Below, in pieces: positions 21,001 through 27,000 of a stretch of 30,633 bases of DNA. The stretch is from a virus (lineage: Duplodnaviria > Heunggongvirae > Uroviricota > Caudoviricetes), in the IMG/VR virus record IMGVR_UViG_3300029888_000014, positions 1 through 30,633 of that record; one strand, 5' to 3'. Every line of letters begins with the position of its first letter. Position 1 is the first letter of the stretch. The position numbers are program-made.

Positions 21001-24000
21001 TTTGCCCATACCGGCGGCTTACCATCCGGATACTGGACCTTGTTTGTAAAAACTACGCTTTCAATAAATTTTTCCCCATAGCAACAAGGGCACTGCTTTT
21101 TACTCGCTGCGCTGCGGGCATAATCCTCAAAAGCGTACGAAGCCATAATGCGCATCACTACCGGTTTTATTTCTGCCGGGAGTTTTCTTAACGCCGCCAC
21201 GCGATCACACCGACTGAGTGCATATTCTGTCAGCAATTCTGTTGCCCGCTCTCTGTCATTCATACTAATGCCCATTTTCCCAAGGAACGCAGAAAAACCC
21301 ATCTCAGCCCGATTTTGTGTCATGCCCTGCGCGGCCATCACATCAGTGATACTCAGCGCATCTTTTGACGTTGAGGCCGATGCATCGGTCAGACCAGGGG
21401 ATTTTGGGGAGTAGTATTTCGGTAAATCTTCCAGTTTCATTTTTTGACCTGCTCTTCATGCATTATGGGGTAAATCTTCACCCCCAGACGTCCACCAGAT
21501 ACTGGCTGACCACGAACGATATTGATTTCATCAAACTGCTCATCGTCCATTAACACTCCCGCATGCGTCAGCGCATCCAGCGGTGCTTTCAGGATATTGT
21601 CCAGGTCGCGACGACGCTTATCCGGTGGCTCTGCAATCACCTTTATCGCCAGCCTTCCGGACAGGCTTAATTTCAGCCGCTGCTGGCGAACAATAAGCGC
21701 CACAGCCCGGCGATAACGCTTTCCCTCCTCCGAGATAAAATATGTGCTGCCACGGCGTCGCCAGTAAGTGTTCACCGTCGGCGGGTAAGGTAAAACCAAA
21801 TCTATGAGCATCAGTCACCTCTTTTACCCAAGCACGCCAGTTGCAAAGGCGTGATCAAGAAAACGAAAAATTAAATCAACCTGAGAACCATGCTTTTCTT
21901 CGAACGCCAGCGGATCCGCATGAAGATCGTTGTGATGCTCCCGACACAGCGGTAGCGTGAAAATATCGTGAGATTTTGTCCCCATTCCGCCCTGACCATG
22001 ACCAATCAGGTGATGGGGATCGTCGGCTGGCTTACCACAACACGCACACGGCTGTGTCTTCACCCAGCGTGTGTATTTCTCGTTAACCCAGCGGCGACGT
22101 TTAGGTCGTTTCATGAAAGATTCCGGAGACTCAGGATCAACGGCAATGCTGACCACCGTCTCTTCCTGTGGCGGGTTTTGCTGGTGGGCGTGAGGCAGCG
22201 GCGCAAGATTTTTTGTGCGCTGCTTCAGTATGCTGGTGGCGGTCTGCTCTCCCGGTACGATGTCGCTTTCACGGTACATTGAGCGGATTTTTTCCGCACG
22301 CAACCCCAGCGAACGACGTAATACCGCTTCCGGTAGCGCGTCCGCCACCTGATTGCGGACCGCCCACCAGGATAATTCAGCCAGCGATAATTCCCGTTCC
22401 TGCGAGCCATTCATTGCATGGCGTATGACGTCAATCATCCATGCAGACAGGTTTTGGTGAGCAAGTTGCCCGAGTGATTCGGAGGTCTGGTCGCGCAGCT
22501 GGTTGTCGCAGTGCCAGCACAACACCATTGCGCCGGTACCATAACGGTGAATGACGGTTTCACTGTGGTGATAATCGCCGTGTGGCCACTGGCAGGATTT
22601 AACATGGCGCAGTAACCAGTCAGACAATGCGCCAGCACCACCAGCAGCACGAATCACTCGTTCGTCGCTGAAAAATGGCAGTAATGATTTATCCTCCGCC
22701 AGCGGCTGGCGAACGGCAGGAACGACCCCGGACGGCAGATTACGCATGCTTTTCGGTTCAGGCTCCACCAGCACTCGAGGGTTATGAAATACTTGCATGG
22801 ATTCACGGCCCGGCCTAAGGACCACCAGCCCGAGTTCCGGTACCAGAACAGGTCGAAGTAATATCCGCACGTTACCTCCAGATCCGTTGCTGGTATGTGC
22901 GGGATGGGCGCGGTGGGCGTTCGGAATAAGGGAGCCTGACATAGATTATCCAGTGACGATAATCGAGGCTGAGGGCTTTCTTAATCTCGTATCCGCGTCT
23001 GCGATAGTTATGAATTAGCCATTCGGCCTGTTCTTCAGTACATGGTGGGTGTTGGTACCAGTCGGTTTTAAATGCGTGTGAACGCCGCTCATGCCGGATG
23101 GCAAGGTCGGTATCAGAATTGTGAAATTTGGTTTTGTGCGCCATCTGTTTTCTCTGCTGGCGCAGCAGGTGTCAGGTGTTCAGGCTGACGTGCGAATTGT
23201 AAACCAGAATGCCAGGAAAAAACAAAACCCGCCGAAGCGGGTTAAGTGCGGGTGCGTTGAGGATGCCTGACACATCAGAGGTGGCGAGGGATTTCTCCCC
23301 CGCCAGGTCTCTTACTCCTCAGGTTCGTAAGCTGTGAAGACAGCGACCTCCGTCTGGCCGGTTCGGATTCGTACCTCGCAGAGGTCTTTCCTCGTTACCA
23401 GTGCCGTCACAATGACGGTTAAACAGATGACGATCAGGGCGATTAACATCGCCTTTTGCTGCTTCATAGCCTGCTTCTCCTTGCCTTTCGGCACGTAAGA
23501 GGCTAACCTAGATTTGCCGTTCATAGATTGAGCCTCAGATTAATGTTAAGCGTCTTGCAGGACGCGTAATGTTAACTGGGGCTTTTCTCTATCTGCCTTT
23601 GGTGTTCATGCCTGAGACAGATAGCCTCAAGCACCCGCTGCAATTCTACTTAACTCTCCTTTTCCCGCAAACCGTTTTTATCCCCAGCGGCAAATCGAAT
23701 ACACCACCAGCGCCACAGCCATTGCGATTCCTGCCGTTGTAAATGCCTCAGGCCAGGTCATCGTAAAACATCCTCCACGCTTATCAGTCCATTTCGTTTC
23801 AGGTAATCCATCGCCATCTCCGGTAATTTGCAGTCTAGATTAGCTTTTTTCAGTTGACTGACCAGTCGTTTAACCCACATTGTTAATTCGCCAACCTGAT
23901 TACTGGATGCTAGTGGATTGTCGGCTTTACCCAGAATGACAGCACAGCAGGCCTCTTTGAGTACCCAATCAACAGCATCTTTCCATGCTCCTGTTTCGAC

Positions 24001-27000
24001 TGGTGGATTCTCACGCTTTACCTGTTCATAAAAGCGCACGGCTTTAACCAGTCCTTCTGATATCACAGGGACTGGCGGGGTAGTGAATAAGGCCTGAATC
24101 TCATAGCCCGGCCTGTCGTTGCACCCCTCTTTTGTCGGTACATATTTCCAGTCACCAACCCACATCTTCTCCTGAAAGTCCGTAACGCCTTTTTTCACGT
24201 AGCGATATCGCCATGCAACTGGTTTTGCCTGCCCTGCCGTTTCATGCCCTTCCTGATAATTAATCTCGCTCATTCATCGCCCCACTCATCACAATATGCT
24301 TCGACCGGAGTTTTTCCTGCTTCGTAGTCATCACGCCAGGCTTCAGCATCAGCAGCACTTCCACCACGTAACTCTGCATAGTCCATTAACAGTTCATGCC
24401 ATTCTTCAAAACTGACGTTGTATTTAGTTGAACCAAAATCAGCCATTTTGTTCTTCCTCTTCGTCTTTTATTTCGTGATATGAGTAATTGCAGTAGTTAA
24501 AGAAAATTTCTTTTGCTTCGTCATGAATTTCATCAGGTGTTGCGTCATCGTCCACTTCGAATACATCCTCAAAATCTCCACCAGCTATTCCCGTTTCAAT
24601 AATTATTTTGAACTTTCGCATTTCACTACCACCCTTTCGGGTGGCCTCCTGCTGTTCTGAGGGTGCAGAAATCCCTCCGGTTAAGGATTAAATTTTTAAC
24701 AGTGCTAAATTTAATTATTCAGTTCTGGATTTTGTCACCCTGCGTATCCGTGCTTTCGCATTACGCTCAATCTGAATTAGCTTTTCTATATTTTTTCGCC
24801 TTTCCTGTTCCTCCTGGCGCAATAGTTTTACATCATCTGCCAGTCTGGTTTCTCTTTTCGCCACAGAGAGCATCCAGTCAAATGGCTCCACAACTGCACC
24901 GCAGATTTTACAGCGGACCTGACGCTCTTTTTCGTCAACCCGGACAGAAGCGTGATGGCAGTATGGTCTTTCCTATGGCTCATAAAGAAAATTAACCTGA
25001 TTACGTGGGTCATCCTCTTTTACCGGAAATAAAACAATATTACTTAACTCATCTTCTGGTTTTATTTCCATGCTCCTCTCCTTTGATGCGAATGCCAGCG
25101 GCAATTGAAGCCTGATAGCTAATTTCACTTACAGTACCGCCTCCTGAAAATTACCCTGATAGAAAGCCAGTACACGCTGCATAGCTTCGCTCTTCCGGCA
25201 CTCGCGACAGATTATATTCAGGCGCCTGTCGTAGCGGCGTATTTCTCCGTCTGGTAATGACCAGATAAGGTCCGGATCAACCGCAGATGGTTTCTTCGGC
25301 TTTGCCCTTGAGAGCTTTTTACGGGCATTTTGCCAGTCCTTACGCGCCTGTTCAGACGGGAATAACCCGTAACCAGAGTTGTATACATCGCCACTGGCAA
25401 CCAGCTCTCTGGCCAGAACGCTCATCAGATATCTTGTTGCCCCAGTTTTAGTTTCCAGTTGTCGTAACGTCTCGCGCCCACTCTGGCGTACGAGTTCAAC
25501 AACCTGCCCTTTAATTTTTTCCCGCTCTTCTTGTGTAAAAACTTTTGCCACAAGCCCTCCTGAAAATTACCTCATGACCAGAAATTAACACTTACCCCCT
25601 GAAGCCCGGCGGAATTTCGTTATCCGGTTCAGAAATATGATTCACACAACGCTGGTTGTTCGTGCCGCTTACCGGGAGCAACCAGGGGTTCTCAAAATTC
25701 CGGTCCGGTCCAAAAAACGTCGTCGCTCGCTGAACAAATTCCGTTCCCGTTTTCCCGGTAGCCGCCAAGTATCTTGCGTAACGCCTCACGCCATCCAGCA
25801 TGGCCTCTGGTGGCACCCCCTCGCGTAATCTGGCCTTCCAGGCACTGAAAGCGGATTTCTTCGGGTTTGCTCCGGCACGCAACGGGTACTCCCGCCAGAC
25901 CTGTTCGAACACATCCGGATAATCCACTCGTCCCACAGACTGCCCGGTGCTTTCCGGGACTACCCGATCGGCTTCCCGCTGAATGGCGGAATCGGCTTCA
26001 GGCTGCTGCAGTTGGTGTGATTGCTCCGGCCTTGCGGTCATCACCTGCTGCACAGCGCCCGAATCGGCTTTCAGCGCATACGCTGAATCGGCTTCCGGTG
26101 TCGTGCCTGCTGGCTGACCAGGATTGACGGTCTGAACATCCCCTGCCTGGTTCGTGGCGTTTTTTACGCCATGAACCATAGTGTTTTGATCTTCTTGATC
26201 TGTATCTTTATCTGTATCTTTATCTGTCGTGACTCGTCGTGACATGTGCGTGACATTTCGTGACGCGCCGTGACAATCGCCATTTTGTTCCCGCTTTCTT
26301 TCCCTCTCTCGCTGCGCCCTCTTGCGCTCTGCAGGAGATTTTGCGGTTTGCGAAATATTGCCGTTGTCCTCTTTAAGCACCTGGCGTTTTTCCCATCCAG
26401 TGATTAAATCACCATCAAGTACCCGCCCCTGCATCGTCTGCAAAATTGAATCAATTACCTCTTCTGTCACGTCGAGCGCACTTGCCAAATCTTCTGTCGT
26501 GACATCAATGTGACCTCGCGTGACATTTCGTGACGCGCTCACCAGGAGGTGGATATACACTGCCATCACTGTTGCAATTGGCTGCCCTGACACCCTGGCA
26601 ATTGTTCGCCACTTAGGGTCATTTGGCATGTCATGCCATAATCTGAGCCAGGCGTTAGCCATACTCACCTCTTCTGATACCGAATCTTTTTACTCACGAG
26701 TTGCCGGAAGCGATTCGATATGGCTATTATCACTCAATGCACTGCCACAGCATTTCCTGCCGGGCCACCACGGTTCATCTGATTGAAACCGGCGATTGCC
26801 ACTGCGACAAAATCATCGGCGTCTCTCACCAGTCGCTCCCGCGTCTCCACCAGCTCCCGAAAATAAGCTGAACTGTGGCTACGCATTCTGGCCACCAGCA
26901 AAGGTGGCATTGCCTTTTCGATCGCTGGTAACAACGCCTGAATTTTTTCAACTGCATCAGGGGTGTCTTTCTCTACCCAGCGGAAAATTTTCTGGGTATT

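Follow-up and report, generated by a model that had tools for sequence, protein, structure and literature searches.

Gene content and variability of the block

The stretch of DNA analyzed here, the window, comprises 30,633 nucleotides (nt) of the IMG/VR virus record IMGVR_UViG_3300029888_000014 (Caudoviricetes) and is a Qin/Rac-like lambdoid prophage of Escherichia coli. Five minus-strand open reading frames (ORFs) lie between its hok/sok locus and the gene of the replisome organiser, exactly where the earlier note on this DNA had placed them. They encode products of 171, 58 and 60 amino acids (aa), a frame of 118 codons and a product of 140 aa, and are called g1 to g5 in this order. The list in that note was not the full set, as a sixth coupled ORF of 27 aa (g0) is also present and conserved. 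All six ORFs are genuine, widely distributed genes, and we read the locus as a mosaic accessory block of an ordinary kind, made up of real early genes for non-enzymatic products, with a probability of roughly 0.7. The features of the locus are as follows:

23312-23636, minus strand: hok/sok, a type I toxin-antitoxin system that bounds the block downstream (Pfam HOK_GEF, E-value 3e-23; Rfam sok, 110 bits at 23462-23636)
23678-23761, minus strand: g0, the sixth coupled ORF MTWPEAFTTAGIAMAVALVVYSICRWG, for a 27-aa hydrophobic peptide (grand average of hydropathy +1.0)
23758-24273, minus strand: g1, 171-aa mosaic protein, PHROG 660 (PHROG segments and tblastn)
24270-24446, minus strand: g2, 58-aa acidic mini-protein with three predicted helices (PHROG 519, E-value 4.5e-23, C-terminal part of the profile only)
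24439-24621, minus strand: g3, 60-aa acidic mini-protein, Pfam DUF7167 (53.6 bits, cutoff 24.4, profile positions 1-60 of 60)
24628-24650, minus strand: AGGAGG and a 7-bp GAAA-loop hairpin before g3 (sequence; minimum-free-energy and centroid folds)
24715-25071, minus strand: g4, 118-codon gene for a zinc-ribbon and coiled-coil protein, PHROG 1621 (E-value 1.4e-55; translation)
25076-25096, minus strand: module junction GGCATTCGCATCAAAGGAGAG, encoding the '...AGIRIKGE' C-terminal end of Ea22-like genes (comparison of related loci)
25129-25551, minus strand: g5, 140-aa DUF977/PHROG 142 protein with a GTG start (Pfam and PHROG profiles, Ren motif)
25140-25155, minus strand: second copy of the 16-nt direct repeat GGTAATTTTCAGGAGG, inside the 3' end of g5 (exact match to the upstream copy)
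25556-25571, minus strand: upstream copy of the same repeat, including a Shine-Dalgarno sequence (repeat search; copies 100% identical)
25592-26668, minus strand: replisome organiser (PHROG 'replication initiation protein')

The overlapping stop and start codons described in the earlier note are found between g3 and g2 (8 nt) and between g2 and g1 (ATGA), whereas the other two junctions among the five genes are gaps of 57 and 93 bp. The start of g0 overlaps the stop of g1, again by ATGA, and g0 lies just upstream of hok/sok. With this arrangement g3, g2, g1 and g0 would be translationally coupled in this order. On the upstream side, g5 starts after a 40-bp gap from the replisome organiser, and the whole block is co-oriented with the cro-like/YdaT/replication operon. 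A search of the minus strand found no terminator-like site inside the block, only a weak 5-bp stem upstream in ydaT and the next site downstream of hok at 23243-23226, and no strong internal promoter was found in the block. It is therefore plausible that the block is co-transcribed with the replication genes, and after induction it would be expressed together with them as part of the rightward early operon.

The block occupies the map position of ren and nin in lambda, between the replication genes and RusA/Q, which agrees with the nin-like location proposed before. The suspicion that it is a variable hotspot was borne out by a synteny comparison of 80 IMG/VR prophage loci, all carrying a g2 of at least 97% identity, so that the statistics describe close relatives only. 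In 79 of these 80 loci the 8-nt overlap between g3 and g2 is retained. On both sides of the pair, prophages that are nearly identical elsewhere differ by kilobases: 31 different spacings (393-2638 bp) were counted between g2 and hok, and the spacing between g5 and g3 lies anywhere from 152 to 1822 bp. Short conserved sequences at the joints between cassettes double as ribosome-binding sites. Furthermore, public contigs encoding the exact g1-g5 proteins number from hundreds to more than 1,000, the proteins being labelled 'hypothetical protein' or DUF, and homologues of the block proteins extend to Klebsiella, Citrobacter, Serratia, Yersinia and even Enterococcus phages.

The acidic mini-proteins g3 and g2

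The earlier note had described the 60-aa product as about one third Asp and Glu and the 58-aa product as acidic as well, and both statements hold. Asp and Glu account for 19 of the 60 residues of g3 (32%; isoelectric point 4.06, net charge -14) and for 16 of the 58 residues of g2 (28%; isoelectric point 4.05, net charge -12). This composition is conserved across both families, with a mean net charge of -12.3 in the DUF7167 family (n = 50 sequences) and of -9.7 in the g2 family (n = 31 relatives), and this acidity is kept down to 33-45% identity. Because the negative charge is conserved family-wide, the acidity of g3 and g2 is to be seen as selected and not as a quirk of this copy.

The DUF7167 proteins and the g2 family are two independent families of about 55-60 aa. 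An exhaustive profile search with g2 recovered 74 clusters among 1.84 billion representatives, nearly all of them stand-alone proteins of 50-65 aa, and the family core consists of F13, W16, L20, A24, G28, W37, Y41, G44, T46, P47, A50 and W55. Acidic residues of g2 that are conserved include D33, D40, E42, D53 and E54. AlphaFold2 models reached a predicted local distance difference test score (pLDDT) of 87.6 for g3, using the alignment of 50 DUF7167 sequences, and of 88.1 for g2, with a predicted template modelling score of 0.72. In the model of g3 a beta hairpin (residues 2-8 and 17-23) is followed by a helix (29-43) and by an ordered, irregular C-terminal stretch ending in an acidic tail, and g2 is predicted to form helices at 13-27, 34-42 and 47-55. 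The predicted shapes are compact mini-domains of about 45 residues, unlike Ocr or ArdA, and a comparison of both models with solved structures, DNA mimics included, gave no significant match. An EF-hand-like calcium loop was considered for g2 and discarded by eye, as the spacing is unsuitable. Truncated variants of g3 are common, one of them being present on 107 contigs.

The AGGAGG sequence upstream of g3 is combined with a hairpin (GCCACCC GAAA GGGUGGU) whose end lies 6 nt ahead of the g3 ATG. This stable hairpin may bring the Shine-Dalgarno sequence to a working distance of the ATG, or it could gate translation.

Although g3 and g2 overlap in the window, they are not obligate partners: no gene of the g2 family comes after the DUF7167 genes of Klebsiella, Citrobacter, Serratia, Yersinia and Enterococcus. 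In Enterobacter g2 follows an Ea22-like gene without DUF7167, which also speaks against a single split protein. A 127-aa 'fusion' (P0195) turned out to be a frameshifted DUF1187+g2 from IncI2 plasmids. Stx2a phages carry the g4-g3-g2 cassette as well, in their leftward ea region with Ead/Ea22-like genes on either side, and in Enterobacter and Citrobacter either g2 or g3 stands directly after Ead_Ea22 genes. Outside E. coli, DUF7167 genes stand by themselves: some follow replication genes, some lie in recombination arms, and others belong to virulent phages of Klebsiella and Enterococcus. In virulent Klebsiella phages of the Guernseyvirinae the DUF7167 gene overlaps the start of a gene for a 455-aa exonuclease, close to a Gp2.5-like annealing protein, a layout that recalls T7, where gene 5.9 lies upstream of gene 6.

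The two families also differ in their distribution on plasmids. DUF7167 was found on 15 plasmids only, and in the one Klebsiella plasmid that was inspected the gene lies inside an integrated prophage. Relatives of g2 are present on 554 plasmids, 516 of which are conjugative. A g2 relative of 80-90% identity is carried by 412 plasmids, which appear to be mostly of the IncI2 type with a size of about 60 kb, and more distant relatives are found on large plasmids of Klebsiella, Raoultella, Providencia and Aeromonas. On the IncI2 plasmid NZ_CP024156.1, which carries mcr-1, an 88%-identical homologue at 27964-28140 belongs to an operon with the order CaiF/GrlA-type regulator, DUF1187, g2 homologue (again with an 8-nt overlap), SPFH and NfeD. 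This operon is located about 15 kb from mobC and may lie on the leading side. The IncI2 homologue of g2 has the accession WP_000753050.

The other genes, their junctions and the surrounding prophage

The gene next to the replisome organiser, g5, matches Pfam DUF977 with 103.1 bits (cutoff 22.1) over residues 1-136 of 140 and PHROG 142, 'Ren-like exclusion protein', over residues 1-139 (E-value 2.5e-48). Residues 112-131 align with residues 73-92 of lambda Ren (60% identity over 20 residues, BLASTP E-value 4e-7) and share with it the C-terminal motif ECRxSxAMxRVLAxY, and tblastn with g5 also recovers an annotated 'exclusion protein Ren'. Because of the full-length DUF977 and PHROG 142 matches together with the C-terminal Ren motif, we regard g5 as the ren homologue of this phage, in position as well as in sequence, attached to the replication module; it stands directly after the replication genes as ren stands after P. 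The two proteins differ in size (96 aa in Ren, 140 aa in g5), g5 contains a basic linker some 45 residues long, and the BLAST alignment is confined to the C-terminal motif. The N-terminal half of g5 is a predicted winged helix, and in the only literature found on DUF977, which is confined to the fold assignment, the domain was classified as such (PMC2686095). Lambda Ren itself is functionally poorly defined, by sensitivity to Rex exclusion and by Rex contacts. It has been described as 'likely involved in DNA replication', with contacts to Rex proteins in two-hybrid assays (bioRxiv 10.1101/2021.04.19.439022). No rexAB genes were found in the prophage stretch examined. YdaW of the K-12 Rac prophage was considered as a DUF977 relative of g5 and dismissed (BLASTP E-value 1.2).

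The two copies of GGTAATTTTCAGGAGG bracket the g5 cassette, and the chance expectation of such a pair in 2.1 kb is below 0.001 by a rough estimate. Both copies are present in 14 related loci and just one in about 20 others, and the repeat looks like a cassette boundary which doubles as ribosome-binding site. A second junction, the 21-nt GGCATTCGCATCAAAGGAGAG, starts 25 nt before g4 in every listed related locus carrying g4, the list being made up of related loci which also match the replisome organiser. It supplies the Shine-Dalgarno sequence of g4, and no Ea22-like gene is present at this site in the window. In other loci, IRIKGE forms the C-terminal end of Ea22-like ORFs located downstream of g2, and the alignment with phage vB_EcoS-689R5 turns identical exactly at GGCATTCGCATCAAAGGAGAG. 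The sequence is the remnant of the end of an Ea22-like gene and appears to be a recombination joint.

For the amber-interrupted zinc-ribbon ORF reported in the earlier note, the amber was confirmed and the zinc ribbon is supported. The in-frame TAG at 24973-24975 is a TCG>TAG change at Ser33, and a DNA alignment has TCG at this codon in the E. coli chromosome NZ_OW849064 and in phage vB_EcoS-689R5. Among 1,515 complete E. coli genomes carrying a 61-mer probe centred on the site the amber was found in none, the best match being 98.4%, so that it is either private to this sequence or a sequencing error. The stop truncates the protein ahead of its conserved part, and because the change was seen in none of the 1,515 genomes we take this copy of g4 to be a private null allele. 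Five homologues with 28-37% identity all retain C38-x-H40 and C54-x-x-C57, and a conserved charged helix comes after these residues. The match to Pfam Zn_Ribbon_TF (TFIIB ribbon) has an E-value of 1.7e-4 and 21.5 bits, which is below the 29-bit cutoff; the alignment supports a zinc-ribbon/coiled-coil protein. Relatives are found in phages of Serratia, Providencia, Enterobacter, Hafnia, Cronobacter and Morganella and in phage 933W, where the homologue is located between an Ea22-like gene and hokW, and the zinc-ribbon stretch is present in 28% of complete E. coli genomes.

Separate segments of g1 match PHROGs 660, 26213, 924 and 8171, and segmental tblastn places three modules in different phage proteins, including those of virulent phages, N15 and P2-like phages. 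Judged by sequence, g1 is a recombinant of three modules found separately in other phages. Its N-terminus, MSEINYQ, shows 43% identity to lambda Ea22 over 23 residues (E-value 0.18), and no Pfam match to Ead_Ea22 (PF13935) was obtained at an E-value of 0.01 or below. In related loci the ORF after g2 always begins with the ATGA overlap and with MSE(I/V)NYQ, and it encodes 49 distinct products in 78 loci, including forms of 171 and 119 aa, Ea22-like forms of 185-270 aa and about 20 frameshifted ones. The frameshift in these roughly 20 of 78 loci (products of 40-85 aa) lies exactly at an A6 run (24190-24195, minus strand) after the codons for Y-V-K-K, which is thus a slippage hotspot repeatedly inactivating the gene. 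The small ORF g0 is intact in 30 of 31 full-length copies, obtained from 38 blast matches in related loci, and its codon differences comprise 64 synonymous and 31 non-synonymous changes. It may encode a small membrane protein.

The E. coli chromosome NZ_OW849064 is 99.9% identical to the 2.2 kb around the block, and at least 80% of this stretch is present in 685 of 5,426 complete E. coli genomes. Since positions 23500-25700 contain just three differences from NZ_OW849064 (at 23837, 24509 and 24974, one of which is the amber), the source of the window is a very close relative of the prophage in this clinical isolate. The minus-strand order there is Cro/CI-type regulator, YdaT, replisome organiser, DUF977, hypothetical protein (118 aa), DUF7167, two hypothetical proteins (58 and 171 aa) and hokD, followed by two further hypothetical proteins, DUF968, RusA and antiterminator Q. 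Beyond the repressor, in the opposite direction, lie dicB, ydfB/C/D and a RecE-like exonuclease, and the integrase of this prophage is frameshifted. The remaining window encodes lambda-type terminase, portal, protease-capsid and tape-measure genes in addition to Q and RusA.

Between Q and the lysis region (18730-19320), Rfam matches identify the small RNA (sRNA) AsxR (anti-Stx2), the sRNA STnc100 and three tRNA genes, an arrangement typical of Stx-type phages; no stx gene was seen in the window. Downstream of Q, two minus-strand genes at 16607-18577 and 19347-20060 encode a 656-aa DUF1737-SASA-DUF6645 protein, with the architecture of a NanS-p-like sialate O-acetylesterase, and a 237-aa AraC-family regulator. 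Both genes represent cargo as in prophages of the enterohaemorrhagic E. coli type.

Possible functions of the block and significance

The earlier note had recognised none of the five ORFs. This is no longer the case for g5 (DUF977/Ren-like) and g3 (DUF7167), and the others belong to PHROG families, but it is correct that no experimentally known function is found in the literature. Searches for DUF7167, the RefSeq accessions, peptide motifs and DUF1187 returned no publications, and block motifs and accessions were not found in the supplements of two anti-defence screening papers. The name 'LygF' is only a locus name inherited from Salmonella annotations. For g1-g5 neither the NCBIfam nor the PADLOC defence profiles gave a match, a PDB sequence search returned chance-level matches only, and none of these five proteins matches an enzyme or defence profile in Pfam, PHROGs, NCBIfam or PADLOC. 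As none of the products carries an enzyme domain, they would most likely act stoichiometrically by binding other proteins, presumably proteins of the host.

The block resembles the lambda nin region in its map position from the replication genes to Q, in its tightly packed small genes with overlaps and in its dispensability, and lambda NinE (60 aa) and NinF (56 aa) are close in size to g3 and g2, by coincidence. The recombination function of this region is provided here by RusA. The possibility raised in the earlier note that all five genes are nin homologues holds in part for one of them, g5, by its similarity to Ren: a comparison of g1-g4 with the lambda Nin proteins (NinB/Orf, NinC, NinD, NinE, NinF, NinG/Rap, NinH and NinI) gave a lowest BLASTP E-value of 1.1 and no match to Pfam NinB-NinH. 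The exo-xis or 'ea' genes of lambda (Ea22/Ead PF13935, Orf60a, Orf61, Orf63, Orf73, Ea8.5) seem to be drawn from the same pool; they are small, early, non-essential and highly mosaic, the g4-g3-g2 cassette is found in that region of Stx2a phages, and the junctions of the block are ends of Ea22-like genes. In contrast, g1-g4 match neither PF13935 nor the lambda exo-xis proteins, and the cassette lies here in the rightward and not in the leftward operon. We assume that small accessory cassettes of this lambdoid 'ea/nin' pool are lined up in the block as an array, which would be expressed within the rightward early operon between the replication genes and hok-RusA-Q.

The main rival to this assumption is that the products modulate development or host physiology in the manner of the lambda exo-xis proteins Ea22, Orf60a, Orf61, Orf63 and Orf73, acting on induction, on host transcription or on the choice between lysis and lysogeny instead of countering defence. 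Published work describes the exo-xis genes as non-essential early genes of small size which shift lysogenisation and induction (PMC7093339, PMC3824215, PMC9239242). The occurrence of the same cassette among Ead/Ea22-like genes of Stx2a phages, the position of g2 and g3 directly after Ead_Ea22 genes in other genera, the Ea22-like N-terminus of g1, the Ea22 C-terminal remnant before g4 and the CaiF/GrlA-type regulator upstream of the IncI2 g2 homologue are all in line with this idea. We nevertheless consider it doubtful, since the similarity of g1-g4 to lambda exo-xis proteins is limited to the 23 N-terminal residues mentioned above, and a lysis-lysogeny role leaves DUF7167 in strictly virulent phages and g2 on plasmids unexplained. 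The view that the block is decaying baggage, carried along by recombination in a cryptic prophage and without present function, would account for the private nonsense mutation in g4, the frameshifts at the A-run of g1 in many relatives, the frequent truncation of g3 and the frameshifted integrase of the near-identical prophage. It is hard to reconcile with an intact g2 and g3 in the window, with length, core residues and charge kept to 35-45% identity across genera, virulent phages and plasmids, with the confident fold predictions for both proteins, with the excess of synonymous change in g0 and with the g3/g2 overlap retained in nearly all loci. Decay fits individual alleles and not the families, and as an explanation of the whole block it is the least likely of those considered.

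The earlier note had read the acidic pair as DNA-mimic anti-restriction proteins, and nothing positive beyond composition came to light for this. In its specific form, g3 and/or g2 would be mimics of the Ocr/ArdA type which block type I restriction-modification or the bacteriophage exclusion (BREX) system and thereby shield unmodified phage DNA. With acidic DNA-mimic inhibitors such as T7 Ocr, ArdA, T7 gp5.9, phi29 p56 and lambda Gam the two proteins share small size, a very low isoelectric point, putative early expression and a home in variable regions of mobile elements. The extreme acidity is conserved in both families, their genes lie at an early-operon position in an accessory hotspot, and the g2 family is present on conjugative plasmids, a typical home of anti-restriction genes. 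Furthermore, known DNA mimics are structurally diverse, and acidic mimics of only 50-60 aa exist (T7 gp5.9, phi29 p56). On the other hand, g2 and g3 lack sequence, profile or fold similarity to these inhibitors: the profile and structure searches returned no Ocr- or ArdA-like protein, no Pfam, PHROG or NCBIfam match to Ocr, ArdA, ArdB/KlcA, Ral or any anti-restriction family and no PDB sequence match for g2 or g3. The models are compact domains and not elongated rods of B-DNA size, and a prophage induced in its own host already has the methylation of that host, so that anti-restriction would be useful only on infecting a new one. Therefore, we regard this role as unlikely. Even less likely, in our opinion, is that g3 is a nuclease inhibitor of the gp5.9/Gam kind which blocks RecBCD or a related exonuclease and saves linear or rolling-circle phage DNA. 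The overlap of DUF7167 with the exonuclease gene beside the annealing protein in the Guernseyvirinae points in this direction, as do the DUF7167 genes of other prophages in recombination arms between genes for Erf or AAA_24, single-stranded DNA-binding protein and Dam and the xis/int genes, the presence of a RecE-like exonuclease and the absence of an annotated Gam or Abc in the near-identical prophage, and the conserved acidity. However, this is an association only; many DUF7167 genes, including that of the window, have no recombination neighbours, profile or fold similarity to Gam, Abc2 and gp5.9 was not found, and the cassette is also carried by Stx2a-converting phages.

We prefer the array of accessory cassettes, and several points weigh against it. 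Early transcription and translational coupling were deduced from gene position. We found no literature on g1-g4 under family names, accessions or motifs, and all functional statements on them are deductions. Decay is frequent, as g1 is frameshifted in about a quarter of the related loci, truncated g3 is widespread and g4 is null here, so that a resident prophage can do without these genes, which could be near-neutral passengers. Apart from the E. coli cassette, g2 and g3 do not occur as partners, and thus there is no conserved two-protein system.

Within this reading the leading, though tentative, mechanism for g3 and g2 is that of electrostatic decoys which would occupy the basic nucleic-acid-binding surface of a protein of the host or of a rival element. 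The target would be a nuclease, a restriction or defence factor or a nucleoid protein, bound early in the lytic cycle. We favour binding to a basic host surface because the charge is conserved while surface positions vary and because conjugative plasmids carry g2 as well; its occurrence on hundreds of these plasmids suggests that the target belongs to the host and not to machinery specific to phages. The decoy idea draws on composition and context, and the predicted models resemble no known mimic or inhibitor. Going one step further, g2 might be the founder of unrecognised acidic 'establishment' factors of lambdoid phages and conjugative plasmids, including mcr-1 IncI2 plasmids, which neutralise a DNA-binding defence or silencing protein of the host on entry, DUF7167 might be a phage-restricted inhibitor of a host nuclease, and the coupled g3-g2 pair might form a compact two-target counter-defence module with folds unlike those of known inhibitors. 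This extension is speculative and, in our estimation, rather improbable.

The block as such is what one routinely finds in the mosaic accessory regions of lambdoid prophages, and every protein is already present in public databases as 'hypothetical' or DUF. Its conserved junctions illustrate clearly how cassettes get exchanged: the 16-nt repeat flanking g5, the Ea22-like end with its Shine-Dalgarno sequence and the MSEINYQ start. The value of the locus lies in a candidate pair for small-protein inhibitor screens, as g3 and g2 are common, conserved in charge and confidently predicted in fold, with no structural relatives or literature. If it is true that either acidic protein inhibits a host nuclease or defence system, this would define a new family of small-protein inhibitors and would link the establishment strategies of phages and plasmids.

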